IMG/VR virus record: IMGVR_UViG_3300033148_006032
Reading direction: 5' to 3' (one strand)
DNA length: 64,000 nt
Source: an uncultured virus (IMG/VR IMGVR_UViG_3300033148_006032)
Lineage: Duplodnaviria > Heunggongvirae > Uroviricota > Caudoviricetes
A program made the translations under genes and the position numbers. The notes below the pieces were generated by a model. It ran no database searches. It worked only from the letters and a program-made list of their open reading frames with translations, and was not told the origin of the DNA. Below are positions 5,654-41,112 of this stretch, in pieces. Each line of letters opens with the position of its first letter. The first letter of the stretch is position 1.

Positions 5654-5928
5654 CCTCCACCTGTATTATTCTTCCCATGGTTCTTTCCATGTTTCTTCTT
5701 GTTTTGAATATTTCACTGTATCAATATTGAATTTACGTGTTACTTCTCCGTTTTCAAGAACAACATCGTAAAACCACTTATCTCCTTCTCCAGCCGGACG
5801 ATGTTCTAGTATTTCCTATTGCTATATTCACGGTCTTTGCAATAATATTGAAGATTTTTTCTGTGTTATCCATTTTTTCTTTGATTATTTTCATTCCTAT
5901 TTACCTCCTTTAAATAAGATATGTTTTT

Positions 5929-6240
5929 TCAAAGTATTTTTTCTATCTCTTTGAATTTTTCAAACAGAGCATGAAACCTTTTGAAATCAACATCACCATT
6001 GACATAAAAAGCATTATCATCCTTCATAGTATAACCGTTGTCGTTTATTGCTATTTTTGCAATATGATAATCTAATCCCATTTCCTGACTCGTTCTTTCG
6101 TATGTGATTTTTTCCTTTTTTGGGAAGTTAGTTTTGAAAATATATCCTTCTCCCGGACCTAATACGTTATTCCTTTTATCTGTAATAATTTCGCTTTTTT
6201 CCAAATATGATAAATCTGATAAACCAATGTTACTATACAT
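5929..6240 (-). CDS. hypothetical protein
   Basis: 103-aa ORF with GGAGG RBS. Confidence 0.6.
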   Translation of the reverse strand: MYSNIGLSDLSYLEKSEIITDKRNNVLGPGEGYIFKTNFPKKEKITYERTSQEMGLDYHIAKIAINDNGYTMKDDNAFYVNGDVDFKRFHALFEKFKEIEKIL

Positions 6241-6308
6241 AGTAATACCTCCATTTAAATATTATTTAAATCCTTTCTGTTCTGTTTTCCCTCCTAAATA
6301 AATAAATA

Positions 6309-6337
6309 TTGTATTTTCCAGTAAAGTATTATATAAT
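6309..6337 (+). promoter_or_regulatory. promoter of the packaging operon (TTGTAT-17-TATAAT)
   Basis: Nearly identical to 25561-25589, including the GTAAAGT spacer motif. Confidence 0.6.
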
Positions 6338-6460
6338 TATTAATAATACCTATAAACGTAAGGTAAATGTTAAGTACATGTTAAGTATATAACAGATGCA
6401 GAAGAATTACAACACTTTTTTAAAAAATTTTTAAAAATATATTTGAGGAGTTCAGATTTA

Positions 6461-7159
6461 ATGATAAGGACAAAACAAGGTAGTAAAAAAGAACAGAATG
6501 AAGAACAAAAAGAATTTATGGAATATTTAAAAGTTCTTAATTTTACTATTGATAATGATTTTGACAGTTCAGAATCAGTAGAGGAAGGTTTGGTAAAAAG
6601 GATAAAACCTAAGCAAAGAAAATATTTTATCCTTGATAAGAGTATTGTAAATTTAAATAATATATTGGATAGCACATTGCCAACAGATGATGTCATAAAA
6701 TTGATTAGCTTCACTGGTGGATTTGCATCAATAAGTTTTATCGGCTATGTGGTGGAAAAGGAAAATATTCTTGAACTTACGGCATCAACCCTGCGAATAG
6801 GGGAAAAGCAGTTTAATTATTTAGCAGAATTACAAGAGGCAGGAAAACTTTTTAAGGCTACATATTTTATTAGTCCATTTATGCGACAAGATCAGAAATT
6901 ACAAGATAAATATAATTATTATAAGCATTTTAATGAGGTCTGTTTGCGGTATAATTGGGAAAAGGTAGTTGTGAATAATCATTCTAAAATAATATTAATG
7001 AGAACGGAAAATAATTATTATGTATTGGAAACATCTTCCAATTTAAATGAAAATCCTAAAATAGAACATTACAGTTTTGAAAATGATAAGGAACTATACG
7101 ATTTTTATTATGATTTTTTTCAACAATTAAAAGAAAGAAGGGTGCAGGAAAATGGTTAA
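6461..7159 (+). CDS. phospholipase D-superfamily-like protein (possible nuclease)
   Basis: Single HxK motif (NNHSKIILM) followed by ETSSNLN; RBS GAGGAG. Confidence 0.55.
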   Translation: MIRTKQGSKKEQNEEQKEFMEYLKVLNFTIDNDFDSSESVEEGLVKRIKPKQRKYFILDKSIVNLNNILDSTLPTDDVIKLISFTGGFASISFIGYVVEKENILELTASTLRIGEKQFNYLAELQEAGKLFKATYFISPFMRQDQKLQDKYNYYKHFNEVCLRYNWEKVVVNNHSKIILMRTENNYYVLETSSNLNENPKIEHYSFENDKELYDFYYDFFQQLKERRVQENG

Positions 7160-16441: not shown

Positions 16442-17158
16442 ATGAGTTTGGTCATCCCGAGGATCGGCTTTGGTGCCTATAATCGAAAAAAAAGAGAAAA
16501 TATGCAAGAAATTTTATTGCGGGTGCAGAATGTTGGTTTCAAATTGTTTGATACGGCCAATGCATATGGGGGAAGTGAAGATATGGTTGGTCAGGTTATC
16601 AATAGTGCTTCTTTTGTTATTACAAAGATTAGTAATATACAACAACGGTCAAGGGATATTGAAACAGCATTCCAGGAAAGTCTCCAAAAAACAAAAAGAA
16701 TAGATACCTATATGATACATTGGCCGGTGAAAGGATATTTTCAGGATACATGGAAGCAGATGGAGTGGTTGAAGGGGACAGGGCAAGTCAAACATTTGGG
16801 AGTCAGTAATTTCAGAGCTGCTCATTTGAATACATTATTGTCAACCGCAAAGATTTTACCATTTGTGAATGAGATTGAATGCCATCCTCTGAATACACAA
16901 AAAGAACAGATTGAGTATAACAGGAAAAACGGCATTAAGATCATAGCTCATACACCATTAGGGAGGATGCATCCACTGATATTAAATAATAAGACTTTGC
17001 GAGGTCTTGCAGATAAATATAAAAAATCAATAGCACAGATTATTCTTCGGTGGCATGTGCAGCAAGATAGAATACCAATACCACATACATCAAACATTGA
17101 TAGGGTTGCGGGATATATGAATATTTTTGATTTTTTGCATGATATCCAAAGAACTTGA
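16442..17158 (+). CDS. aldo/keto reductase (C-terminus appears frameshifted)
   Basis: IGFG, FDTANAYG, DTYMIHWP, LGVSNF, NEIECHP, AQIILRW; +1 frame continues ISKELESIDGINQD to 17231. Confidence 0.9.
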   Translation: MSLVIPRIGFGAYNRKKRENMQEILLRVQNVGFKLFDTANAYGGSEDMVGQVINSASFVITKISNIQQRSRDIETAFQESLQKTKRIDTYMIHWPVKGYFQDTWKQMEWLKGTGQVKHLGVSNFRAAHLNTLLSTAKILPFVNEIECHPLNTQKEQIEYNRKNGIKIIAHTPLGRMHPLILNNKTLRGLADKYKKSIAQIILRWHVQQDRIPIPHTSNIDRVAGYMNIFDFLHDIQRT

Positions 17159-17250
17159 ATCCATTGATGGGATAAACCAGGATAAATGGTTGGGGTTTAC
17201 CCCATCAAAAGATATGTACTGGAGAATATAAAAGAAAGGAGGAAAAGTGT

Positions 17251-17880
17251 GTGGAGAATAAAATTGAATTAAGTATAATTATTCCTTGTCACAATTTAGA
17301 AAATCATATTGATAAATGTTTGGACTCTATTCTGCAGCAAGATATTGCAGATATTAGATGTGAAATTATTTTCATTTGTGATAGTTGCTCTGATAATACA
17401 GAAGAAAAAATTGTCAAAAAAATGAACTCTTTAGATGCAATGGAATGGCACTGGAAAGTAAGAAAAGTTAATTATAAAAGTCCGGGTTTGACAAGAAATG
17501 AAGGGATGAGTCTTGCAAAAGGTGAGTATATTTGGTTTATAGATGGAGACGATTGGCTAATTGGTGATAACGCCATAGAAGTTATTATAGATTTATTTCG
17601 TGATAATCCTTCTACAGATGTTGTTAGATTTAGATTTGATAGTCAGGGATGTCCGAATAAAGGAATTTATATAACCCTCTGGCAATATGTGTTTAAAAGG
17701 GAATTTATAAAAGATATCAAATTTCAAGGGGGGTTATTTGATGAAGACGTAGCGTTTGTTCAAGAAGTGAGAAGCAGAAGTCCTAAGATTAAAAGGATAT
17801 ATGATTATTTCTATTGGTATAATTTTCCTCGTGAAGGAAGTTTAACTGAACAAAAACTTATTAAAAAAAAGGGAGGATGA
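17251..17880 (+). CDS. GT2-family glycosyltransferase
   Basis: SIIIPCHN, DSCSDNT, RNEG...AKGEYIWFIDGDD, ED. Confidence 0.9.
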   Translation: MENKIELSIIIPCHNLENHIDKCLDSILQQDIADIRCEIIFICDSCSDNTEEKIVKKMNSLDAMEWHWKVRKVNYKSPGLTRNEGMSLAKGEYIWFIDGDDWLIGDNAIEVIIDLFRDNPSTDVVRFRFDSQGCPNKGIYITLWQYVFKREFIKDIKFQGGLFDEDVAFVQEVRSRSPKIKRIYDYFYWYNFPREGSLTEQKLIKKKGG

Positions 17881-17886
17881 AGTATA

Positions 17887-18666
17887 ATGATTAGAGCACA
17901 TTATTTTAAGAGTGTGAACAATTTCGGAGACCAACTTGTTGGCCCGATTATTAAATGGCTATGCGGTGAGGATGTTGCATGGGTTGGCAACAAAGTTGAG
18001 GGGAAATTATTATGTATTGGAAGTGAAATAACCAGGGGTGTAATGAGGAAGAATGATGTTGTATGGGGGTATGGTGGGAAATATCAGAAAGACATGGTTG
18101 TCCCTGAAGGAGTCAAGATATTAGCCACACGAGGGAAAAAGACGGCTGCCTTACTCAAAGACACTAGAGTAAATGTATTTGGAGATCCTGCGTTACTGAT
18201 AGCAAAAGTGCATAAGGCTCCTGAAAGAACGGAGGAATATAACATAGGCATAATTCCACATTTTACGGATGCTAAATTTTTTACGCATATCAAACATAAG
18301 AAGGCAAAGTTGTTCAATATTCTTGATGATAAATGGAAGATAATTGAAGATATGCATAAATGCAAAGTGATTCTTTCAACCAGCTTGCATGGTTGCATAG
18401 TGGCAGAAGCGTATGGCATTCCGGTAGTATGGATAAAGCCTGCCAAATCTATTGTTGGCGGTTTGGAATTCAAGTGGAACGATTATTTTTCAGGAACAGG
18501 TAGACCAGCACAGAAGCCGTATCAGTTACCACATCCAATTACATTGAAGGATTTGGGTAAGGCTAAATTTCAGACATTGCCAAAACCGATAATTGATACA
18601 ACTAAACTGGAAAAGGTATGGCGTGATTTTTATAAATCGCCGGGGATAAACAAAATAAGAAAATGA
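17887..18666 (+). CDS. polysaccharide pyruvyl transferase (ExoV-like)
   Basis: NFGD, IGS, RG, GDPALL, IIPH and STSLHG..VAEAYGIP motifs. Confidence 0.85.
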   Translation: MIRAHYFKSVNNFGDQLVGPIIKWLCGEDVAWVGNKVEGKLLCIGSEITRGVMRKNDVVWGYGGKYQKDMVVPEGVKILATRGKKTAALLKDTRVNVFGDPALLIAKVHKAPERTEEYNIGIIPHFTDAKFFTHIKHKKAKLFNILDDKWKIIEDMHKCKVILSTSLHGCIVAEAYGIPVVWIKPAKSIVGGLEFKWNDYFSGTGRPAQKPYQLPHPITLKDLGKAKFQTLPKPIIDTTKLEKVWRDFYKSPGINKIRK

Positions 18667-18681
18667 ACATACTGCGGGGAG

Positions 18682-20754
18682 GTGAAGAAGGGAAAGATGA
18701 GAAGCACAATAGCAGTTAGTAATATTTCGAATAGGACAATCAAAATTGGGGATTTAGTGTTTCCTTCCCGGGAAGAAAAGGTGGTTGCAATTGAACTGAC
18801 CTCGATGGACTTTCAAAAAATTCGGGCGGAGCGGTGCTTGAAGTTGGGGAAGCCAGGTGAACTAAAGAACTATCTTGAACCCGCCAAGAAAGGAAAGGAA
18901 ATGAGGAACATTCCCCGGGGAAGAACAAAGGAAGTGGGGAAGATGAAAAGAACTCCTTTTGTCAGTATCATAACACCATGCTATAATGGGCAATCTTATT
19001 TGCATAGATATTTTCAGTCCATATTGAAACAAACATATAGAAATATTGAGTTAATTTTTGTGGACGATTGTTCAACGGATAAGACAAAGATTATTGCTGA
19101 AAATTATAAGCCGAAGTTAGAAGCAAAAGAAATTAAAGTGAAAATCATATGCCTTCCTAAAAATGTTGGTGTATCAGGTGTGGTAAATGTAGGGCTTAAG
19201 CGTTTTACTGGTGCTTATCTAATGTTTCTTGATAGTGATGATATTATGTATCCAAACCACATTGAGCGAAAAGTGTGTTTTTTGGAGCAAAATAAACAAT
19301 ATACTTGGATGGCTTGTCGAATTAATAAGGTCAGCCATTCAAAAAAAATAGGTATTCTTGAGGTTGCCCATAAAAAAGAAACAGAGAATATTTTTGAACG
19401 TCTTATATTAAGTCAAAATGTATGTTATAATCCTATATTGTATATGTATAAGGCCTCTTGTTTTTTGGAAGTTAATCCATCAAGAAAGATTCATAATACA
19501 CGACATGGACAGAATTATCAATTACTTTTGCCAATGGCGTATAGGCATAAGTGTGCTTTTCTTGATGAAATCCTTGGGAACTATATTGTGCGGGCAAATA
19601 GTTTATCGAGAACAATTAACCGTCCAAAGGAGCTTGATAGAACAAACAAGCGGGAGAAAATGCTTATACATACTATCAATAATATCAATGGGATTGGGAT
19701 AATGGATAGGCAAAAATATATCAATATGGTGAAGCGGAAATATGGGAAATATGGGAAATATAAAGGGAAAGATATAAAAAAAGTAATGTTAATCGGAGGA
19801 ACTGGCGTGTTGAGTCGTGACGTGGCTAAACAATGTATAGCGTCCGGCATGGGAGTATGGATGATAAATAGAGGTAATAAAAAATCACCAGAAGGGGCAC
19901 AGGTTATAATTGGTGATATAAATAAGATGACTTCTGGTAAACTTGGAAATATGAAGTTTGATGTCGTAATTGATTTTTTAGCTTACGTACCAAAGCAGTT
20001 AGAAAAACATCTTAAATTGTTTCGGGATAGATGTGCACAATATATTTTTATTAGTACTGCCACGGTGTATTCCAACAAAAAGGAGAAGGTTTTGGTAACG
20101 GAAAGCAAGGCTGTGACGAATGTGGATTGGAGTTATTCACGAAATAAGATAGAATGTGAGAGGTTATTAAAGAAATCTTATAATGTGGCAGCGGAATATT
20201 ACACAATAGTTAGACCGTACATAACCTATGGAGATACTAGGATACCATATCCTTTTATCTCCAGAAAGAGTCAATGGACTCTTATTCATACCATACTTAA
20301 TGGTATGACTATTCCAATATGGGGTTCTAATTTATGTACACTGACGCATACCGAAGATTTTGCGAGGGCGTTGGTGGGATTATTCACTAATAAAAAAGCA
20401 AGGAATGAGGCTTTTCATATTACATCTGATGAGTACATGACATGGTATAAGGCACTGGTCTTAATTGGAAAAGCAATTGGAAAAGCACCTAAAACTATAC
20501 GTATCCCAGCCAAAGAGATTGAAAAAATGTTTTTAACTATGAAAGGTGAATTGACGTGTGATAAATCCCATACAAGGATATTTAATAATGCGAAGATAAA
20601 AGACGCTGTGCCCGGATGGAAGTGTCATATTAATTTTGCGGATGGTATAAAGCGGACAATACAATACTTCCAAGACCATCCTAATATGATGCGGGTGAGT
20701 ACGGCATGGGAAGAGAAAGCAGAAAGTTTGATTAATACATGGAAGGAGAGATAG
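18682..20754 (+). CDS. fusion: small N-terminal domain + GT2 glycosyltransferase + NAD-dependent epimerase/dehydratase
   Basis: VSIITPCYN...VDDCSTD...FLDSDD; then IGGTGVLS, YIFIST, YSRNK (YxxxK), IVRP. Confidence 0.85.
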   Translation: MKKGKMRSTIAVSNISNRTIKIGDLVFPSREEKVVAIELTSMDFQKIRAERCLKLGKPGELKNYLEPAKKGKEMRNIPRGRTKEVGKMKRTPFVSIITPCYNGQSYLHRYFQSILKQTYRNIELIFVDDCSTDKTKIIAENYKPKLEAKEIKVKIICLPKNVGVSGVVNVGLKRFTGAYLMFLDSDDIMYPNHIERKVCFLEQNKQYTWMACRINKVSHSKKIGILEVAHKKETENIFERLILSQNVCYNPILYMYKASCFLEVNPSRKIHNTRHGQNYQLLLPMAYRHKCAFLDEILGNYIVRANSLSRTINRPKELDRTNKREKMLIHTINNINGIGIMDRQKYINMVKRKYGKYGKYKGKDIKKVMLIGGTGVLSRDVAKQCIASGMGVWMINRGNKKSPEGAQVIIGDINKMTSGKLGNMKFDVVIDFLAYVPKQLEKHLKLFRDRCAQYIFISTATVYSNKKEKVLVTESKAVTNVDWSYSRNKIECERLLKKSYNVAAEYYTIVRPYITYGDTRIPYPFISRKSQWTLIHTILNGMTIPIWGSNLCTLTHTEDFARALVGLFTNKKARNEAFHITSDEYMTWYKALVLIGKAIGKAPKTIRIPAKEIEKMFLTMKGELTCDKSHTRIFNNAKIKDAVPGWKCHINFADGIKRTIQYFQDHPNMMRVSTAWEEKAESLINTWKER

Positions 20755-21356
20755 AATTGGGTGATTATATAGGTTTGAAGGATTTTAAAGGTTTGAAAAT
20801 CGTGGGTGGGAAACTTGCTCCAAAAGTTAAGAGTGTTTTTATATTGCATAAAAATGCAAAGATGGAATTGCATGGTAATTTTGTCACAAATGCCAATTGC
20901 ATTTTTCCGAATGGTAGAAGTACAATAGTTCGGTTGGATGCAAAGGCGCTTTTGAAAACTAATGGCAATTTCACTGTATTTTATGGCGGTGATATTATTG
21001 TGTTCAAGGGGGCTCGATTGGAATTAGGAGCTAGTTTTTGCAATTCAGATATTAAAATTAGGTGTTATAAGCATATAAAGATCGGTAATGGTGTAATGAT
21101 AGGTCATGATGTTACCATTATGGATACAGATGCGCACCCTATGAATTATGAAGGATACGACATGACAAATGCAGTTATTATTGAGGATAATGTGTGGCTA
21201 GGTACAAAGGTCACTGTCTTGAAAGGTGTTAGAATAGGGAAAGGTTCTGTGATTGGGGCGGGGGCAGTAGTAACAAAAAATATTCCACCTAATTGTTTGG
21301 CAGTAGGAGCACCAGCAAGGGTGATTAAGAAGGGGATAAAATGGGGAACGAAATAA
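20739..21356 (+). CDS. O-acyltransferase, hexapeptide (LbH) family
   Basis: IEDNVWLG..VTVLKGVRIG.GSVIGAGAVVTKNIP...GAPAR. Confidence 0.9.
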   Translation: MEGEIELGDYIGLKDFKGLKIVGGKLAPKVKSVFILHKNAKMELHGNFVTNANCIFPNGRSTIVRLDAKALLKTNGNFTVFYGGDIIVFKGARLELGASFCNSDIKIRCYKHIKIGNGVMIGHDVTIMDTDAHPMNYEGYDMTNAVIIEDNVWLGTKVTVLKGVRIGKGSVIGAGAVVTKNIPPNCLAVGAPARVIKKGIKWGTK

Positions 21357-22195
21357 AAGTTTATGCAGCGTGGTCTCTTGATGATGAGATAAGATTCAAC
21401 AGTACATCTGGAGGTATATTTACAGAGTTAGCAAAGGCAGTTATTAATCAAGGTTATGGTGTGGTTGGTGCGAGATATGGCAGTAATAATATGGTTGTGC
21501 ATGATTTAATTGATAAAGTTGAATACATTCCGGTACTTCGGCAATCAAAATACGTGCAAAGTGTTATGGGGGATATCCGAGGGAGAATGAAAGGCAAGAA
21601 AATTATGTTTGTTGGATCTCCTTGCCAATGCGCAAGTGTAAAGGCGGATATAAAAGTTGATTTTGTCTGTCGAGGTGCGAATTCTCAGAAGGCGTATAAA
21701 AGCTATTTGCAAATGTTAGAGACTCAATACAAGAGTAGAATCAAGCGGGTGTGGTTTAAGAATAAGACGTATGGTTGGCATAAGTTCAGCACGCGGATTG
21801 ATTTTGAAAATGGTAAAATGTATTTGAAAGATCGGAGTAATGATTTATACATGCTTGGATATATCAAGCATAATTTATTTATGCTTGATAGATGTTATAA
21901 ATGTAAATTCAAAGGTTTTCCCAGGCATTCTGATATTACCTTAGGAGATTTTTGGGGTGTTAGAAAAGCACTTGACCCAAATAAAGGTACGTCATTGGTA
22001 ATTATAAATACGGAGAAAGGGCAAAAGTTGTTTGATAATCTGAAAATATATAAGGGGGATTCAACATTTAAGGAAGCTGTAAGACAGAATCCCTCCATTG
22101 TGAGACCCCCAATCAAAGGAAAACATTCCGATCGATTTATGAAATTGCTTGACAAATACCCATTTGATGAATGTTTTAGGATGTGTGGCTTATGA
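21341..22195 (+). CDS. FrhB/F420-reducing hydrogenase beta-subunit-like protein of polysaccharide loci
   Basis: STSGGIF, SKYVQS, GSPCQC, VC.G, CYKCKF...SDITLGDFWG. Confidence 0.8.
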   Translation: MGNEIKVYAAWSLDDEIRFNSTSGGIFTELAKAVINQGYGVVGARYGSNNMVVHDLIDKVEYIPVLRQSKYVQSVMGDIRGRMKGKKIMFVGSPCQCASVKADIKVDFVCRGANSQKAYKSYLQMLETQYKSRIKRVWFKNKTYGWHKFSTRIDFENGKMYLKDRSNDLYMLGYIKHNLFMLDRCYKCKFKGFPRHSDITLGDFWGVRKALDPNKGTSLVIINTEKGQKLFDNLKIYKGDSTFKEAVRQNPSIVRPPIKGKHSDRFMKLLDKYPFDECFRMCGL

Positions 22196-22836
22196 GCATT
22201 CCAAAGATAATCCACATGATATGGATCGGGCAGAAACCTTTTCCGTATCAGAAAAATCTTAATAGTTATAAAAAACACCATCCGGAATGGACGATTTATC
22301 TTTGGACGGATAAGAATATCCCAAAAATGACAAACCAAAGAATATATGATTCTATTCCTATTTTTGCAACGAAGGCAGATATATTGAGACTTGAAATATT
22401 AGCGAAATATGGTGGCGTCTATGTTGATGCTGATAGTATATGTTTGAAACCATTAGATACTTTGGTCAAAAATGAGGATTGCTTTTTTTCAACCAATTGG
22501 AAGGGGAAAATAGAAATAAATTTCATGGGATGTACTCCTTCCAATAAATTGATGGAAACGCTGATAAAGAAATTGCCGAAATATTGGGCGCGGAAAAGAA
22601 GAGAAAAATGTGAATTCAATGTGTATTGTATATATCGTTTTATCCGAAAAAAGATATCCAATTATGAATTCACAAAGTTTGCACGAAAATATAATTGCAT
22701 GGCAGAGGAGAGGACACATGAAACATATATTATTCAGAAGATGGATCATACGTGGGCAGGGGGGAAACAATTTAGACTTCCTGCTCTAGAAGAGGCTGTG
22801 GAAAGAAAAAAATTGACTGAGGAGGTTGCGTTATGA
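22192..22836 (+). CDS. DXD glycosyltransferase (GT32/OCH1-like)
   Basis: IPKIIHMIWIG, ADILRLEILAKYGGVYVDAD. Confidence 0.9.
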   Translation: MSIPKIIHMIWIGQKPFPYQKNLNSYKKHHPEWTIYLWTDKNIPKMTNQRIYDSIPIFATKADILRLEILAKYGGVYVDADSICLKPLDTLVKNEDCFFSTNWKGKIEINFMGCTPSNKLMETLIKKLPKYWARKRREKCEFNVYCIYRFIRKKISNYEFTKFARKYNCMAEERTHETYIIQKMDHTWAGGKQFRLPALEEAVERKKLTEEVAL

Positions 22837-23495
22837 TTGATGTTATATACCTTGCAGCAGGCCAAGGAAAAAGAGCTAAGCTTGGGTATCCAAAACAATT
22901 TGCCAGATTGGGAGGTAAACCTATTATGATTCATGCCTTGGAGATATTACAGAACATGGGTGAGATGGGGCGTATTATTATCCCATGTGCGGATGTGTAT
23001 GAAACAAGGCGGTATATGAATTCTTATGGGATAATTACGGCAGCACTTATTCCTGGCGGAAAAACAAGACAAGAATCTGTATATACTGCATTGCAATATG
23101 TTAATACGGAATATGTACTCGTGCATGAAGCCGTACGCCCTTTTATCACGGAGGAATTTGTTCGTATGGTTATTAATATTGATGGGGATTCTGTAACTCC
23201 AAGAAGGCAATCTATGGCGACTGTGATAGATAATGATGGTAAGTGTTACAATAGAGATTGTTTGGGCGAGGTTCAAATGCCACAGAAATATCGGACTTCC
23301 GTATTGCGTGCAGCACATAGGAAAGCGTTGGATGAGAAAAGATATGATTCTACGGATGATGCCGCTATTGTATATAATTTGAAGGGTTCTGTAATGGTAG
23401 TAGAGGGGTTGGAAAATAACATCAAAATAACAACTCCATTAGATTTGACGATTGCGGAGGCGATATATAATGCGTGTTATTGTGACAGGGAGTGA
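22833..23495 (+). CDS. IspD/TarI-family cytidylyltransferase
   Basis: LAAGQGKR...PKQF, GGKTRQES, HEAVRP, QMPQ, TDD, NIKITT..DL. Confidence 0.9.
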   Translation: MIDVIYLAAGQGKRAKLGYPKQFARLGGKPIMIHALEILQNMGEMGRIIIPCADVYETRRYMNSYGIITAALIPGGKTRQESVYTALQYVNTEYVLVHEAVRPFITEEFVRMVINIDGDSVTPRRQSMATVIDNDGKCYNRDCLGEVQMPQKYRTSVLRAAHRKALDEKRYDSTDDAAIVYNLKGSVMVVEGLENNIKITTPLDLTIAEAIYNACYCDRE

Positions 23496-24102
23496 ACGAG
23501 GCATAGGAAAAGCAATGGCAAGGGAACTTTGTAACCGGGGTCATTTCTATTACGGGTTTAGTCGTTGGAATGACATTGATGTATCCGATTATGCGTGTGT
23601 ACAACGCGCTTTTGATGAACTATCAGAGGAGCCCCCTGATGTTCTTATTAATAATGCTGGTATTGTGGAATTGGGTAGTATATTAGAATTGACAGAAGAA
23701 TCATGGAAAAGACAATTTGAGGTGAATATGAATGGTGTATTTTACTGCACCAAGGAGTATGTGCGAATTGCGAAAAATACAGGAGGTAAGATAATTAATA
23801 TTGCATCTACTGCGGGAACAGGAGCACGGCCTGGACGTTCTGCGTATGCAGCGAGTAAGGCAGCGGTCATTAATTTTAGTTTGTCCATGGCTGAGGAATT
23901 GAAACCGTATGGGATAAAAGTATATTGTGTTGCCCCAGGAGCATGTGATACAGATATGCGGCATGAAATAGCACCAGATGATGATTTTGAAAATATGCTT
24001 TCCCCCGGGCAATTGGCAAGGTTTATTGTTGACATTGCGGAGGATGGATATATGTTGGATAATCAGGTCATAACAATGCGAGGAGGAAGGCATATTACAT
24101 GA
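23470..24102 (+). CDS. short-chain dehydrogenase/reductase, likely partner of the cytidylyltransferase in CDP-polyol synthesis
   Basis: TGSERGIG, NNAG, NIAS, YAASK; overlaps the cytidylyltransferase gene. Confidence 0.85.
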   Translation: MRVIVTGSERGIGKAMARELCNRGHFYYGFSRWNDIDVSDYACVQRAFDELSEEPPDVLINNAGIVELGSILELTEESWKRQFEVNMNGVFYCTKEYVRIAKNTGGKIINIASTAGTGARPGRSAYAASKAAVINFSLSMAEELKPYGIKVYCVAPGACDTDMRHEIAPDDDFENMLSPGQLARFIVDIAEDGYMLDNQVITMRGGRHIT

Positions 24103-33521: not shown

Positions 33522-35237
33522 ATGGCAGTTAAAATATTGATACAGGCATATGATTCAGATGATACGGCGGAGGCCGGAACTACTACAACGAATATAAAAA
33601 TGACCGCACATGGTTTGTCTGTAGGAGATCACATAATCAATTCTACACGTAATTCCATACCGCCTGCTTTTGATAATATAGCCAGCCGGAGGGTTACGGC
33701 TGTTCCTGATGTGGATAATATAACTGTGGAAGCAATATCGGGGCAGACCTCAGGTGATACGATTAGGAAATACATACATGTAGATCGTACCAATTATTTT
33801 TCTCCTAAATCATTACATATTTTAAGGCAATCTGAATATCGCCGTAATTGTATATTTTCTCTTATTGCAACCACGGCGTATAGGCCGAGAGCTGGGGAGG
33901 ATTTGGTGGTTAAAGAAGATGGAAATGTAATTTTTGGTGGAGTTATTAATTCAGTCAAATCGCGCAGAATAGGGATGACCACAAGAATTATGTATACAAT
34001 ATATTCCGAAGGATATGGTTCCCTACCTGGAAGAAGAACAGTACAAAACTCACATAGTAATACGGATGCCGGAACACTCGTTGAATTTTACGTTGATAAT
34101 TATTTGTATGAAGAAGGCATATCCAAAGGTACAATTGATACAGGAGCCACAATCTCGGTTTACGATGCTAATAGTAAATCCATTCAGGATATATTAAATG
34201 AGCTTGCTACTATGTCTGGATATAAATGGTATATAGATGATAATAAGGCACTCTATTTCTTCCAAGATGATGCGGTAATTGTAGAGGCGGCGCATGACCT
34301 TGATAATAATACATTTAAGAATTTTCGAGATGTTCTCTTGGATGAGACTATTGACCAATATCGGGATAAACAGTTTTTCCGAGGAACTACAGGCTCTGAT
34401 GGATATTTGATCCAGGTGACATCTGTAAATGCTACCCAGGTTACTGAAAGACAAAATATTGAAGGTCTGAGTGGATACTATGGGAATGTAAAATGGGATT
34501 CCGATTTTGATGATATAACCAATGCAGAAACAGCAGCGGAGAATGCGCTGAAAAAATCTGGAAAGGTTCTTCCTTCTGTAATAAGTTTTGATACAGAGGT
34601 TGTTGATTTTGTCCCCGGGACAAAATTAAAGGTAGAGCTTGTTGATTGGGGAATAAGTTTGTCTTATTATTTAATTGAATCTGTGGAAATATATGATCTA
34701 AATGGGATAATATTACGTTCCAGAGTCAGTGGGACTAGGCGTGATGATAGTTCATTTTCCACACAAAAATCTGATGATGCTGCTACCTTTTTTGGAAATC
34801 TTGTGAAGGCCGCAAAAAAAGGAGAAGCAGGAGTAAATACTCTTGTGCCTGATGATGCCGGTAATTTGTATTCTGTATCAATATTTGTTCAAAATGAGGA
34901 ACCAGCAAGACCTCGCGGAAAATCACTTTGGGCAAATCCTGCAGATCCTTCAACATATGATATTCAAGAAATAGCTGGGGACACAACGATCACACCGCGT
35001 GGTCCGAAATATATTGAAGTAAGTGGGGAGACGACGGTGACTTTATTTGCATCTGCTGGAAATGATGGGGTAATACGGAAAATAGCAAATGTAGGCAATG
35101 ATTTAGTAACAATAGATGGAAATGGGGCAGAAACAATAGGGGGAGCGTTAACATTGTTATTGTACCCGGGAGATGCAGACCATCTTCCTGAAAGTGTTGA
35201 AATTACATGTAATGGTATTAGTTGGGATGTGATGTGA
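33522..35237 (+). CDS. tail tip/baseplate hub protein
   Basis: Follows tape measure; IFGGVI, LNELATMSGYKWYID hub-like pattern. Confidence 0.65.
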   Translation: MAVKILIQAYDSDDTAEAGTTTTNIKMTAHGLSVGDHIINSTRNSIPPAFDNIASRRVTAVPDVDNITVEAISGQTSGDTIRKYIHVDRTNYFSPKSLHILRQSEYRRNCIFSLIATTAYRPRAGEDLVVKEDGNVIFGGVINSVKSRRIGMTTRIMYTIYSEGYGSLPGRRTVQNSHSNTDAGTLVEFYVDNYLYEEGISKGTIDTGATISVYDANSKSIQDILNELATMSGYKWYIDDNKALYFFQDDAVIVEAAHDLDNNTFKNFRDVLLDETIDQYRDKQFFRGTTGSDGYLIQVTSVNATQVTERQNIEGLSGYYGNVKWDSDFDDITNAETAAENALKKSGKVLPSVISFDTEVVDFVPGTKLKVELVDWGISLSYYLIESVEIYDLNGIILRSRVSGTRRDDSSFSTQKSDDAATFFGNLVKAAKKGEAGVNTLVPDDAGNLYSVSIFVQNEEPARPRGKSLWANPADPSTYDIQEIAGDTTITPRGPKYIEVSGETTVTLFASAGNDGVIRKIANVGNDLVTIDGNGAETIGGALTLLLYPGDADHLPESVEITCNGISWDVM

Positions 35238-36151
35238 TGGGTATATGGGTGAGATTAGTAGGAAACATAAGATATTATGTTGATGCAGCTGCTTTTTTAT
35301 ATGCTACTGGAGGTCAAATCAGCCACCACGCTGGTGACAGTTCGTTGGATTGTGATGAATATAATTCTATAACAAATGGATGGACTGTGCGTGCCGATAT
35401 GCCCGTACCGACACGTCAGAGGCATGCAGGGAGTTCTATACTGGGAAAAGGCTATATATACTGTGGCTTAGCGGTAGCACGCGTGCAAGACTGTGATGAA
35501 TACGATAATTCGTTGAATTCATGGGATAATAAAACTGATTGCCCAGCTCCAGCCAGGTACCTTTTGACTGCCTCAACTATATTGGATAAAGGATACATTT
35601 TTTGTGGGAATTCTTCTGGTGGGGATCTTCAAGACTGTGATGAGTACGATTCGGTTGGTAATAGTTGGGATAACAAAACAGATGCTCCAGTGCCTGCCAG
35701 GCGCGAACTTGCCTCCTGTATGATTGATAATAAAGCATATATTATCGGTGGGTATTCTGGTGGTTATAGAAGTGACAATGATGAGTACGACTCTGTTGGA
35801 GATAGTTGGAATAGTAAAACGGGCACAACTGCAACAAGCAAATGGTCTGCATGTACAATATCAGGAAAAGGATATTTATTTGGCGGACGAACTGCCGGAG
35901 GAATCCAGAGGTTATGCAAGGAATATGATGCGGTTGGGGATGCTTATACAAAAAAAACGGATATGACACTTGGGCGTACCAGTGCGGCTGCGGGGACTTC
36001 CGAGGAAAGAGGTTACATTTTTTATGGCGCAGAGGAGGTTACTGGGCGTTCAAAGGTTTGTGATGAATATGATCCAGTAGGGGATAATTGGGTAGATAAA
36101 ACAGATGGAATTGACCCAACTCGGTATGAACTTGCCGGGTTTGGAATATGA
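35237..36151 (+). CDS. Kelch-repeat beta-propeller tail-associated protein
   Basis: Six repeats of KGYIFGG...CDEYD...NSW..KTD.P..R. Confidence 0.85.
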   Translation: MGIWVRLVGNIRYYVDAAAFLYATGGQISHHAGDSSLDCDEYNSITNGWTVRADMPVPTRQRHAGSSILGKGYIYCGLAVARVQDCDEYDNSLNSWDNKTDCPAPARYLLTASTILDKGYIFCGNSSGGDLQDCDEYDSVGNSWDNKTDAPVPARRELASCMIDNKAYIIGGYSGGYRSDNDEYDSVGDSWNSKTGTTATSKWSACTISGKGYLFGGRTAGGIQRLCKEYDAVGDAYTKKTDMTLGRTSAAAGTSEERGYIFYGAEEVTGRSKVCDEYDPVGDNWVDKTDGIDPTRYELAGFGI

Positions 36152-38584: not shown

Positions 38585-38655
38585 ATATGTAATACTAGTA
38601 AATAGATTTAAAATGTAGTATAATATAATATAATATATTAAATAGGAGGTTTTTT

Positions 38656-39000
38656 ATGAAAAAAATTAAAATTACGGACTACTTGGCAAAGGGAAGAAAT
38701 ATTGATATCAAAGAATCAATCGCCTCAATATTGTTTCATCCTATGTTGCAGCTTAATCACTTAGAATTATTTCGCAATAGTGAGATTATGGCAGAAATCA
38801 AAGCGTGTACTGATGAGTATATAATATTGGCAGACCCCCAATATAAAATATTGGAAAAGGCCGTGGAAACAATAAGAGGGTGGTCTGAGGATAGTATTGA
38901 ACTGGTAGGCAGAATTATTAACGCCGAAACGGTTAAAGCGTTTGAAAAAATAGAAGGGGAAGTTGCGCATAAATTAGACAAAGAAAAACCTACCTCCTAA
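38656..39000 (+). CDS. hypothetical protein
   Basis: RBS AGGAGG; preceded by AT-rich region containing TATAAT (about 38600-38630). Confidence 0.6.
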   Translation: MKKIKITDYLAKGRNIDIKESIASILFHPMLQLNHLELFRNSEIMAEIKACTDEYIILADPQYKILEKAVETIRGWSEDSIELVGRIINAETVKAFEKIEGEVAHKLDKEKPTS

Positions 39001-39075
39001 ACAGGTAAGAATATTTTTAAAAGGAAGGCGCAAAGGAAGAAAATATCCGGTGACGGGAATAATAGAGGTGGATTT

Positions 39076-39627
39076 ATGAAAAAAAATATAGGTAATGTAG
39101 TTAATGTATTGACATTCCTATGTGTATTTTCTATATTAGTATCAATCATCACAAAGTTATTTGGTACTACTATATTTGATACATCGGGTGCATTAAACAA
39201 TTGGGAGTTTTTGAATTTTGAATGGGTGCAATACATAATCAATGGAGGATTTATATTACTCCACTATTATTTAATCGTAGGTTGTATTACAAGACTTGAA
39301 CCAAAAAAGTTATTTTTTAAATTATTACCATTTGTATTGTTGATCATTGTCTTGTTCTTTATCCCACAAAAACATTATATGATTTTGAGTTCCATAATCA
39401 TGCTAGTGACGTGCATTGCATTATCTCCGTATTTTTCAACCATAATAAAATTTATTATTAATTTTGTAATTATTTGTTTATTTCAGCAAGTAATGATATG
39501 GCTGAGGTATAGTGATATATCTTCAACTGCATTATTCGTCAGTACTGCTGAAAAAATAACAATAAATATAGATCAGACAATATTCTTAACACTATTATAC
39601 TGTCTGAATAGAAAGGGGGTGAAATGA
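39076..39627 (+). CDS. multi-pass membrane protein, possible kinase-less AgrC-like sensor
   Basis: About 5-6 hydrophobic segments; directly upstream of the peptide and AgrB-like genes. Confidence 0.55.
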   Translation: MKKNIGNVVNVLTFLCVFSILVSIITKLFGTTIFDTSGALNNWEFLNFEWVQYIINGGFILLHYYLIVGCITRLEPKKLFFKLLPFVLLIIVLFFIPQKHYMILSSIIMLVTCIALSPYFSTIIKFIINFVIICLFQQVMIWLRYSDISSTALFVSTAEKITINIDQTIFLTLLYCLNRKGVK

Positions 39628-39728
39628 TGCCAGGTTCTTGGTTTTTCATAGGGGAAAAGACAAAAGATTCATTCCAGTTTGGACTGAAGAAATTAGGTGA
39701 TTGCTTATGCAATTTCTTCAGCATGTAA
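39624..39728 (+). CDS. AgrD-like peptide precursor, 34 aa (absent from ORF track)
   Basis: MMPGSWFFIGEKTKDSFQFGLKKLGDCLCNFFSM; RBS AAAGGGGGTG; ATGA overlap with the upstream stop. Confidence 0.5.
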   Translation: MMPGSWFFIGEKTKDSFQFGLKKLGDCLCNFFSM

Positions 39729-40072
39729 AGGACTTCTTAAAAACTGCCAGCTTTGTATTATTTGTAATTATAACACAAGGCTGGCAAGCTTTGGGTATAA
39801 TCTTTATATCCATATTAAACAATAGACCATGGGAATGTCTGTTCATATTTATAGGATTCGTTATGGGTAGGCATTTTTTCGGGAAGAGCTATCATGCTCC
39901 GTCTTTGTGGGTATGCACTATAATAACCTGGGGAGTCTTTTACTTTTTGACCTCAGCTATACCAACGTTTCAAGTTAGTGTTACTCTTCCTTGTGTGTTT
40001 GGCGTAGGGTTGGCCTATGCTCTCTCAAGGATTAATGACTTTACGGAACAGAAAGGAGCGCGTAATGGGTGA
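39707..40072 (+). CDS. agrB: short AgrB-like membrane peptidase
   Basis: GRHFFGKSYHAPSLWVC matches AgrB R-x3-G-x2/3-HA-x5-C with His/Cys 7 residues apart; hydrophobic. Confidence 0.7.
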   Translation: MQFLQHVKDFLKTASFVLFVIITQGWQALGIIFISILNNRPWECLFIFIGFVMGRHFFGKSYHAPSLWVCTIITWGVFYFLTSAIPTFQVSVTLPCVFGVGLAYALSRINDFTEQKGARNG

Positions 40073-40286
40073 AATATATTCTTGGCTACAGTTTATAATT
40101 GTGGTAATTGGATTGATTTCCGTGTTTCTCCGTATTGGAAATTCACAGGGAAAGCAACAGGAAAAAAACAAGAATGTTGAGAAGAAACTCGATATTCACG
40201 ATAAAAAAATAGACATATTGGAAGCAAATATTTCAGAAATAAAATCCGATCTGTCTTATATAAAAGGAAGATTATTGCCAAAATAA
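40065..40286 (+). CDS. holin-like protein (1 TM + coiled coil)
   Basis: N-terminal TM, coiled coil ending LSYIKG; directly upstream of endolysin. Confidence 0.55.
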   Translation: MGEIYSWLQFIIVVIGLISVFLRIGNSQGKQQEKNKNVEKKLDIHDKKIDILEANISEIKSDLSYIKGRLLPK

Positions 40287-40300
40287 GAAGGAGGTATGGT

Positions 40301-40897
40301 ATGATAAAAGTTTTGAACACCCCCAAGCTTTCAAAAAACTTTACTTTGTCTGAGTTTGTATGTCCGGACGGTAATAGGGAAGTAATAATAATTGATGAGC
40401 TTGTGAAACGCTTACAGGCTCTCAGAGACGTATTGGAAAAACCTGTGAGGCTTGTATCCGGATATCGAAGCAAGTCATACAATAAAAAAATAGGAGGTGC
40501 CAAAAATTCTCAACATCTGTATGGTAATGCCGCAGATATAAAGGTTTCTGGTATACATCCTGCTGATGTGGCCAAGGCTGCGGAACTTGTTGGATTTCGT
40601 GGAATTGGTATATACACGCACAATGGAAATAATTTTACACATGTTGATCTCCGGGGAAAAACAACTTACTGGAAGGACTCAAAAAGTGGAAAACTAGTCA
40701 ATATGAAAATGATTGAAGGGTATACCAAGGAATATAGTTTGCCAAAAACAACAGATACGATTATTATTGAAAAAGAAAGATTAATTGAGAAACAAGTACA
40801 GGTTATCAAGCGCCACGAAGAACGTTTTAAGTCTGTATTTGAATTAGCACAAAAAATATTAAATTTAAAAGGAAAGGAGAATGATCATGCAGAATAG
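40301..40897 (+). CDS. endolysin, peptidase M15A family
   Basis: NFTLSEF, SGYRS..YN..IGGAKNSQHLYGNAADI, FTHVD.R. Confidence 0.9.
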   Translation: MIKVLNTPKLSKNFTLSEFVCPDGNREVIIIDELVKRLQALRDVLEKPVRLVSGYRSKSYNKKIGGAKNSQHLYGNAADIKVSGIHPADVAKAAELVGFRGIGIYTHNGNNFTHVDLRGKTTYWKDSKSGKLVNMKMIEGYTKEYSLPKTTDTIIIEKERLIEKQVQVIKRHEERFKSVFELAQKILNLKGKENDHAE

Positions 40898-41081
40898 ATG
40901 GAAATCGAAAGTATTATGGGCTTCCATAGTAGTTCAAATAATTGCAATAGGTCAGCTGGTTGGATTATGGCAATTAATAGGTGTTGATGCCGGACTTGTT
41001 GGCGATGTAGCGGCTGGAATACTTGGATTATTGGTAACTATAGGAATTATAAATAATCCAACAAATAAACACAGCTTTTAA
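40881..41081 (+). CDS. holin
   Basis: QNRWKSKVLW, two TM segments, GIINNPT. Confidence 0.8.
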   Translation: MIMQNRWKSKVLWASIVVQIIAIGQLVGLWQLIGVDAGLVGDVAAGILGLLVTIGIINNPTNKHSF

Positions 41082-41112
41082 TACTTTTAAGTATCTGATC
41101 AAACAATCAAAC

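Follow-up and report, generated by a model that had tools for sequence, protein, structure and literature searches.

A 64-kb stretch of DNA from the uncultured Caudoviricetes virus IMGVR_UViG_3300033148_006032 (hereafter the window, to which all coordinates refer in full) carries, directly 5' of its lysis genes, a unit of three overlapping genes encoding a six-helix integral membrane protein, a small cysteine-containing peptide and a half-size member of the AgrB family. Sequence comparisons indicate that this cassette is real, conserved and unusual: it keeps the catalytic signature of AgrB, and falls short of full AgrB membership in its architecture and of full AgrD membership in the lack of a follower peptide. 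We interpret the unit as a minimal, receptor-less AgrB/AgrD-type peptide-maturation cassette in the late operon, apparently smaller than any such set so far described, and put the probability of this reading at approximately 0.5.

Organisation and distribution of the three-gene unit

The open reading frame (ORF) list and the sequence place six closely packed genes on the plus strand between 39076 and 41081, the first four of which (39076-40286) are coupled one to the next. The unit starts with the gene for the six-helix integral membrane protein (39076-39627; 183 amino acids (aa)), which belongs to a family without assigned function. The ATG of the small ORF (39624-39728) overlaps the TGA stop codon of this gene as ATGA, with a second ATG present at 39627, and a Shine-Dalgarno-like string, AAAGGGGGTGA (39612-39622), is located within the 3' end of the membrane protein gene, 5' of the peptide ORF. 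The encoded cationic peptide comprises 34 aa (33 aa from the second ATG) and contains the core Cys29-Asn-Phe-Phe-Ser-Met, followed directly by the stop codon. The codons of this C-terminal Cys-x-Phe-Phe-x-x core (39708-39725) lie over codons 1-7 of the AgrB-like gene, in a different frame. The AgrB-like ORF itself (39707-40072; 121 aa, four predicted helices) follows an AGGTGA string at 39695-39700. It is followed by a gene (40065-40286) for a 73 aa protein that, on the basis of the ORF and an alignment of relatives, consists of an N-terminal membrane anchor and a coiled coil; AAAGGAG is found 5' of its start, at 40052-40058. An initial annotation of this DNA had listed a multi-transmembrane protein at 39076-39627, an ATGA-coupled 34 aa ORF, a 121 aa protein and a following endolysin and holin, all of which were recovered at those positions. 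It had also described the end of the AgrB-like gene as overlapping the first lysis gene. The overlap stands, with the coiled-coil gene covering the AgrB-like stop codon by 8 bases; the start at 40017 is less likely, the ATG at 40065 being the most likely start of the coiled-coil gene by sequence.

Fourteen related loci were taken from viral and metagenome contigs which, following reduction of three near-identical pairs and three contigs present in two collections, give 12 distinct variants with the window included. The same order of membrane protein, small ORF, AgrB-like protein and coiled-coil protein recurs across all 14 related loci (a contig end cuts the membrane protein gene in three of these, and one contig stops before the coiled-coil gene), and the synteny with lysis genes, which the initial annotation had suggested checking, holds in every one. 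The three-gene unit is conserved in 12/12 distinct loci, all from uncultured phages or metagenomes, with AgrB-like protein identities of 53-67%. Two pattern scans of 185,579 species genomes, using the AgrB-core and six-helix alignments, yielded no relative, and no match was found in 50,697 phage records by blastn of the region 38600-41100 or by tblastn of the AgrB core, the six-helix protein and a distant relative of the latter (P0036). A search for sequencing runs containing the region gave none, RNA included. One family member, P0007, is deposited under a 'Candidatus Odinarchaeota archaeon' metagenome-assembled genome (MAG) on a 3,235-base contig. As every other member has a phage context, the contig looks to be of phage origin and to have entered the archaeal MAG through binning. 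The literature covered, with subscription journals and supplements falling outside it, describes no half-size AgrB, follower-less precursor or cassette of this kind.

A half-size AgrB-family core

The 121 aa protein matches the Pfam AgrB family (PF04647) with 33.5 bits (cut-off 23) and an E-value (E) of 3.5e-8. The match spans residues 13-97 only, corresponding to profile positions 21-104 of 185, and the protein is without the first ~20 and last ~80 profile positions. A word-indexed search identified 17 relatives and a profile search 40, counted as clusters, which are 47-68% identical to the window protein. The 17 relatives from the first search all match Pfam AgrB at E ≤ 0.001, with a best value of 1.2e-9. 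Given that all relatives have a length of 106-143 aa, the short length is a rule of the family as opposed to a quirk of this genome. Fused versions of the core that exceed this length were not detected, which in itself is weak evidence.

Conservation and alignment to phage AgrBs define a putative active-site stretch from Arg55 to Cys70 (39869-39916) with the pattern R-x3-G-x3-H-A-x5-C, the window protein containing GRHFFGKSYHAPSLWVC at residues 54-70. His63 and Cys70, seven residues apart, are invariant in an alignment of the 40 relatives, while 90% or more of these have Arg55 and Gly59. Using hhalign, the R55-H63-C70 stretch is placed onto the R...HA...C stretch of AgrB from Clostridium phage phiCDHM1. 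The corresponding comparison with AgrB (gp46) of Brevibacillus phage Davies gave a probability of 81.6% (E 1.1e-5; 41% identity over 44 columns) across the catalytic stretch. Both reference proteins are bona fide AgrBs as judged by Pfam AgrB, with 122.8 bits for phiCDHM1 and 80 bits for Davies. R55 aligns to the Arg of the phiCDHM1 and Davies enzymes with a one-residue insertion, and the conserved Gly59 is located four residues before the His, not two.

An AlphaFold2 (AF2) model of the AgrB core (predicted local distance difference test score (pLDDT) of 67) contains helices at residues 2-38, 41-58, 64-84 and 93-120, placing R55 at the end of helix 2, H63 in the turn and C70 in helix 3. Proteolysis by S. 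aureus AgrB requires R70, G75, H77 and C84, which the account given by PMC10196373 assigns to these three structural elements. In the model, the secondary structure positions of the Arg, His and Cys residues match those described for the S. aureus enzyme. The active-site loop is presumably cytoplasmic, going by the distribution of Lys and Arg residues. The same account states that no AgrB structure was available in 2023 (PMC10196373), and PDB sequences gave no match to the AgrB-core family profile at E ≤ 10. Profile matches and alignments identify the 121 aa protein as an AgrB-family catalytic core that lacks the C-terminal half.

A further motif specific to this family, N-x-R-P-W-E-C, occurs at residues 38-44 of the AgrB-like protein (39818-39838), in the first predicted outer loop. 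N38, P41 and C44 are invariant in all 40 relatives, and the Davies AgrB has the same N and E. C44 constitutes a second conserved Cys of the family, on the opposite side from the active site.

A conserved gene for a small cysteine peptide

An ORF of 30-41 codons, the peptide being typically of ~31 aa, occupies the same position, overlapping both neighbours, in every related locus. The last 29 codons align without gaps across the 12 distinct loci, with F, G, F, G, C, F and F invariant. The N-terminal two thirds are leader-like and conserved as W-x-F-L-G-[EK]-K...F...L-K-K-x-G, and the peptide always ends in Cys-x-Phe-Phe-x-x-TAA, the distance from Cys to stop being fixed in 12/12. Mean column identity by codon position in the peptide frame is 0.78, 0.81 and 0.64, with the third position showing wobble. 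Across 13 codons that encode the peptide only, compared in 11 loci (L007 was left out, its upstream gene reaching further), there are no stop codons and the ratio of non-synonymous to synonymous polymorphism (pN/pS) is 0.44. The other two forward frames contain 15 and 18 stops; one antisense frame is also open (pN/pS 0.53), as mirror frames often are. The peptide frame appears to leave its mark on the AgrB-like gene, codons 3 and 4 of which are NTT and YTT in all 12 loci. The third position of these codons is fixed and the first varies (yielding Phe, Ile, Leu or Val), the pattern expected of a constraint from the Phe-Phe codons of the peptide frame. A Shine-Dalgarno-like string and a start codon are present in all loci, the former of the GAAAG.GGGGTGA or AGGTGA types in the relatives. 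This coding pattern identifies the small ORF as a genuine gene.

The last residue of the peptide is the most variable, which fits a putative leaving group. By analogy, a five-residue ring (Cys plus four) with the variable last residue leaving would fit the pattern of an autoinducing peptide (AIP), at most one or two C-terminal residues being removable after the ring. A cut after the conserved L-K-K-x-G-x stretch would likewise fit this pattern, and would leave a two-residue extension before the ring. The peptides have a net charge of +1 to +9, and 11-residue hydrophobic moments of 0.58-1.10 that are reached by 0-11% of shuffles.

The six-helix membrane protein

The AF2 model of the 183 aa protein (pLDDT 77.5; predicted template modelling (pTM) score 0.69) consists of six long helices. 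Lys and Arg occur only in the N-terminus, the loop 73-78 and the C-terminus, predicting an N-in/C-in topology, and the C-terminal tail of the window protein is six residues long with no output domain. The C-terminus and the AgrB active-site loop are both on the Lys/Arg-rich, presumably cytoplasmic, side. Homologues are located 5' of the peptide ORF in all related loci, with the genes overlapping. Pfam, PHROGs, NCBIfam and PADLOC gave no match to the protein. Among 1.84 billion representative proteins, a profile search revealed 24 relatives of 73-230 aa, none of which is fused to a kinase or other domain (8 were scanned against Pfam, with no match), and an Atlas search returned its own family only, with a few Bacillota or Uroviricota labels. 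In the case of the relative P0024 (206 aa), the membrane protein runs in frame into a typical peptide, the Cys-x-Phe-Phe-x-x end included. This fusion is more in keeping with a maturation or export partner than with a receptor. The distant relative P0036 has a tail that resembles the peptide leader and ends before the Cys; scans of viral contigs for relatives of P0036 and P0038 gave none.

Structure comparison of the six-helix model with the PDB yielded no Foldseek match at E ≤ 0.001, and the best VIA-align hit (48,161 chains; Z 6.6) is within noise. Comparison with phiCDHM1 AgrC using hhalign gave a probability of 0.2%, and no likeness to Davies gp45 was detected, both being low-power tests against a single sequence. 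On account of its similar length and helix count, the six-helix protein was also considered as a divergent AgrB paralogue. This is without support, as hhalign probabilities against the AgrB-core alignment, phiCDHM1 AgrB and Davies AgrB are all ≤ 0.2% (again at low power), and Pfam AgrB was not matched at E ≤ 1. The top match of the six-helix model in BFVD is A0A8S5R960, a 429 aa viral protein annotated as AgrB (E 0.065, probability 1.00, TM score 0.61 over 186 columns). The same entry occupies rank 11 for the AgrB-core model (TM score 0.46 over 126 columns). Judging from the models, A0A8S5R960 may be a fusion of the six-helix protein and the AgrB core, which we take as a lead only.

A programmed frameshift joining the six-helix gene to the peptide was considered and rejected, the frame relation not being uniform: it is +2 in the window and L016, +1 in ten loci and in frame in P0024. 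As the relation varies and all loci have a start codon behind a Shine-Dalgarno-like string, independent initiation is the simpler explanation. In 6/12 loci (L004, L005, L006, L009, L011 and L013), the six-helix ORF ends in 6-8 A residues followed by TAA. A one-base slip at this A-run would, in silico, join the ORF to the last ~22 peptide codons. The run may be mere Lys-rich coding or a route to a tethered form; the window itself has no A-run at the end of the six-helix gene.

Lysis cassette and phage context

The unit sits between tail fibre genes and the lysis cassette, with the coiled-coil gene directly 3' of the AgrB core in all 12 distinct loci. In the window, this gene is followed by an endolysin (40301-40897; Peptidase_M15_3 in Pfam, 1.2e-25; PHROG endolysin, 4.4e-39) and a 66 aa holin (40881-41081; PHROG phrog_297, 4.6e-6), the latter matching Pfam Phage_holin_1 with E 6.9e-4 and 20.5 bits, slightly below the cut-off of 22. 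Endolysins 3' of the unit vary across the loci (M15_3, M15_4 with S8, Amidase_2, Amidase_3 or unassigned) and the unit remains unchanged; in L002, the gene for a subtilase-family (Peptidase_S8) protein (5879-6808) separates the holin gene from that of the M15_4 endolysin. In L024, a near-identical coiled-coil gene directly follows the tail fibre gene and precedes an Amidase_2 endolysin and a holin-like gene, the unit being absent. The existence of this cassette without the unit indicates that the unit is a separable three-gene insert and that the coiled-coil gene is the first gene of the lysis cassette. Weak Rz-like PHROG matches were found for the coiled-coil protein in 6/12 members (best E 1.3e-4). 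Assignment as a spanin was rejected, the Rz-like matches being just weak and the distribution of Lys and Arg suggesting a coiled coil on the cytoplasmic side. We also considered whether this protein is the true AgrD, given its canonical place after AgrB; it lacks a Cys, Ser or Thr conserved at a constant position and occurs without the unit in L024, and this candidate was likewise discarded. No terminator-like site was found on the plus strand between the tail genes and the holin. Promoter-like sites over the same interval number 16, versus 14.6 expected from shuffles, which is no excess. On these signals, the simplest assumption is that the late transcript includes the unit.

The 64-kb window is phage throughout. 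The plus strand carries genes for small and large terminase, portal, capsid, tail terminator, tape measure and tail fibre-like proteins, and the minus strand those for a family A DNA polymerase, RecA, clamp loader, sliding clamp, SNF2 helicases and a replication initiator. Among the 89 window ORFs scanned with Pfam at E ≤ 1e-4, we found no histidine kinase, LytTR protein, integrase or other lysogeny gene. Five related viral records (44-73% complete) contained no HATPase_c_5 or LytTR domain (0/5). Two of the five encode a tyrosine integrase a few kb 3' of the unit, indicating that some carriers are temperate. No tRNA genes were found in the window. The carriers are uncultured, siphovirus-like phages that probably infect Bacillota.

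Two further features of the window concern its structural genes. A set of sugar/polyol-phosphate metabolism genes (16442-24102) lies within the structural module, between the genes for the minor capsid protein and the scaffold/capsid proteins. It encodes an aldo/keto reductase, two family-2 glycosyltransferases (one epimerase-fused), a polysaccharide pyruvyl transferase, a hexapeptide acyltransferase, an FrhB/FdhB-like protein, a DXD glycosyltransferase, an IspD-like cytidylyltransferase and a short-chain dehydrogenase, and may serve virion glycosylation or host-surface modification. A 309 aa Kelch-repeat beta-propeller protein is encoded at 35222-36151 among the tail fibre genes, and a similar repeat protein is found 5' of the L004 unit.

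Proposed mechanism

In the maturation cassette we propose, the AgrB core would attack the peptide at its C-terminal end from an active site facing the cytoplasm, and would take off the final one (or two) variable residues. Transfer of the acyl group to the Cys of the peptide itself would generate a small thiolactone ring, Cys-x-Phe-Phe-x, and removal of the leader would leave a short N-terminal extension on the ring. The six-helix protein would bind the conserved part of the leader, and could either replace the lost half of AgrB or export the product. Joint expression of the unit and the lysis genes would mean that the product appears late in infection and leaves the cell before or at lysis. 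The reader of the product would lie outside the cassette, and could for example be a host agr-type receptor or another phage factor.

Several observations weigh against this proposal. The full AgrB architecture of ~190 aa and six membrane helices is absent, the window enzyme having 121 aa and four predicted helices, and the AF2 model of this core is just moderately confident (pLDDT 67). Mutation of K129-131 in S. aureus AgrB is described as leaving peptidase activity intact and abolishing AIP formation (PMC10196373). A core without the C-terminal half, which includes the K129-131 region, might thus cut only and not cyclise. The peptide stops five residues after the Cys in 12/12 loci, and is without the charged C-terminal follower of 14-15 residues described for AgrD (PMC10196373, PMC8251862), which in S. 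aureus is reported to carry residues essential for AgrB cleavage (PMC10196373). As the AIP-formation region of AgrB and the follower are both lacking, cyclisation is uncertain though plausible. The gene order, with the peptide preceding AgrB, is the opposite of agrB-agrD. Furthermore, the Cys codon TGC supplies the TG of the AgrB-like ATG, and the invariance of this Cys is partly forced by the overlap. The strongest amphipathic window of the peptide is mostly located over the C-terminal half, Cys and Phe-Phe included, and this would also fit a membrane-surface helix. Finally, enzyme activity, product, export, receptor and any effect on lysis timing are inferred.

A more far-reaching version, which we consider possible yet doubtful, would have the unit operate as a self-contained factory for a pherotype-variable cyclic peptide. 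It would contain the smallest working AgrB known (121 aa, four helices, no follower needed) and a new six-helix partner that both holds the leader and exports the product, would be fired with the lysis genes, and its signal would be read by host agr-type receptors or sibling phages. A working half-size enzyme would define the minimal catalytic unit of AgrB, and would imply that a separate membrane partner can replace substrate recognition via the follower peptide. The unit, with three genes in less than 1 kb in total, would then represent a peptide-signal maker placed in a late operon, not in the lysogeny region, without a receptor of its own. Such a location would point to manipulation of neighbouring host cells, or to communication at lysis. 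The variation around the invariant Cys and Phe-Phe resembles agr pherotype variation.

Alternative explanations

The unit could act within the infected cell as a lysis accessory, either through action of the peptide on the host membrane, or through trimming of the peptide or the coiled-coil protein by the AgrB core, thereby helping or delaying the holin with no signal leaving the cell. The coupling of the unit to the lysis genes is in keeping with such a role, as are the cationic nature of the peptides (+1 to +9) and hydrophobic moments (0.58-1.10) that only 0-11% of shuffles reach. The distribution of Lys and Arg also suggests that one membrane face carries both the AgrB active-site loop and the juxtamembrane stretch of the coiled-coil protein. 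However, the fixed distance from Cys to stop and the invariant Phe-Phe point to a specific enzyme substrate, and not to a general membrane helix, while no Cys, Ser or Thr is conserved at a constant position behind the anchor of the coiled-coil protein, which is also found without the unit. We therefore regard an intracellular role as unlikely. The initial annotation had instead described an agr-like signalling module wired to the lysis cassette, in which the six-helix protein is an AgrC-like sensor without kinase that senses a cyclic peptide made by AgrB, signals to the lysis machinery by protein contacts and sets lysis timing; a module that might jam or mimic the host agr system was named as the alternative. 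Much of the underlying description was borne out. The 121 aa protein is AgrB-like and shorter than canonical AgrB (Pfam match in 17/17 relatives, hhalign probability of 81.6% with Davies AgrB, His63 and Cys70 in 40/40), and the 34 aa ORF is conserved with the marks of a coding frame (12/12 distinct loci, 0 stops, pN/pS 0.44). Neither a histidine kinase nor an AgrA-type LytTR protein is present among the 89 window ORFs at E ≤ 1e-4. None of the outcomes named there as speaking against the idea, i.e. no AgrB match, a lack of conservation of the His and Cys residues, or a peptide neither conserved nor translated, occurred. The location of the unit directly 5' of the lysis cassette and coupled to it (12/12 distinct loci) agrees with a sensor, as do the lack of kinase or LytTR proteins in the window and in the related records (0/5), and the occurrence of kinase-less agr-like cassettes with membrane proteins before AgrB in published phage genomes (Davies gp44-gp46 checked). 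The sensor assignment itself gained no support beyond position: hhalign against phiCDHM1 AgrC gave 0.2% at low power, there is no likeness to Davies gp45 in an equally low-powered single-sequence test, no database match was obtained, and the 24 relatives are kinase-free. In addition, the protein has no output domain and a C-terminal tail of only six residues in the window, and the P0024 fusion to a peptide precursor would be odd for a receptor. The wiring to lysis is upheld for position and coupling and not as dependence, as L024 keeps the same lysis genes without the unit, and lysis is thus independent of it. A sensor that times lysis appears less likely still.

A moron-type cargo would combine a bacteriocin-like or exclusion peptide with a maturation protease and an immunity or export membrane protein, directed against competing bacteria or superinfecting phages. 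The interval between tail fibre and lysis genes is a common site for accessory cargo, the unit is present or absent between otherwise similar cassettes, and some carriers are temperate, 2/5 related records having a tyrosine integrase. On the other hand, PADLOC has no match for any of the three proteins, no promoter-like signal of the unit's own rises above background, and neither an integrase nor another lysogeny gene was detected among the window ORFs scanned. A membrane protein, a peptide and a protease would equally be needed by a signal-making unit, and we consider cargo of this type improbable, below both preceding explanations. On a last proposal, the small ORF would be no gene and the AgrB-like protein would be a decayed remnant without a peptidase role. 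The overlapping start does force the Cys codon, and short ORFs arise easily in AT-rich DNA. Nevertheless, the ORF is open with the same end in 12/12 loci and wobbles in its own third positions, the competing forward frames are full of stops, and a Shine-Dalgarno-like string lies 5' of it. With His, Cys and a uniform length also retained by 40/40 AgrB-like relatives, decay is strongly disfavoured and hardly credible.

Comparison with known systems

The proposed maturation cassette resembles AgrB-AgrD of the agrBDCA systems of Staphylococcus and Clostridia in having a membrane cysteine peptidase with Arg, His and Cys residues, the His and Cys being seven apart, and an adjacent small precursor in which Cys is followed by hydrophobic aromatic residues, in one operon. 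In contrast to AgrB (~190 aa, six helices), the window enzyme has 121 aa and four predicted helices, covering profile positions 21-104 of 185. PMC10196373 and PMC8251862 describe an AgrD with four ring residues after the Cys and a charged follower of 14-15 residues, whereas the window precursor has five residues after the Cys. Furthermore, the precursor gene is located 5' of the enzyme gene, a six-helix partner is an obligatory addition, and there is no AgrC or AgrA.

Clostridium phage phiCDHM1 has been reported to carry agr genes (PMC3901668), and the phage agr genes discussed in PMC11945551 are full-length, host-like homologues such as those of phiCDHM1. The agrC-agrB-agrD genes of this phage (HG531805) are similar to the window unit in that phage-borne agr genes occur without agrA and adjoin holin and endolysin genes. 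The phiCDHM1 proteins comprise a full-length AgrB (197 aa, 122.8 bits), a 453 aa AgrC with HATPase_c_5 and a 37 aa AgrD with a follower. This phage is a temperate myovirus whose cassette lies in the lysogeny-side region, on the opposite strand. The window, by contrast, encodes a half-size enzyme and no kinase, in a unit that shares the strand of the late genes and is coupled to them. A tblastn search with phiCDHM1 AgrB matched 13 phage records, two of which were looked at besides phiCDHM1 and Davies: a gut phage contig has a canonical agrC-agrB-agrD arrangement, and Ruminococcus phage NatCom_29429 has a full-length AgrB with a receiver-LytTR regulator nearby.

The cassette of Brevibacillus phage Davies (gp44-gp48; KC595518) is the nearest analogue of the kinase-less layout in a published genome. 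One or more membrane proteins overlap and lie directly 5' of AgrB, a small peptide gene is present and a kinase is not, and Davies AgrB is the best profile match of the window catalytic stretch. Two paralogous membrane proteins of ~220 aa are encoded in this region (L028, 26243-28658), where the record names only AgrB. Davies differs in that its AgrB has 172 aa (80 bits), and its 39 aa peptide is encoded 3' of AgrB, with a follower-like tail and no Cys. The cassette is beside an integrase and is followed by a weakly LytTR-like protein (E 0.0074, under the cut-off). The Davies membrane proteins are not detectably related to the six-helix family in a low-power single-sequence test.

The arbitrium system (AimP/AimR/AimX) of SPbeta-like phages uses linear peptides that are Sec-secreted, cut extracellularly and read by an intracellular phage receptor. 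The Pfam scan of the window, which included no search aimed at AimR, revealed no arbitrium-type genes. What the proposed cassette would share with arbitrium is a phage-encoded short peptide that could carry information between infections.

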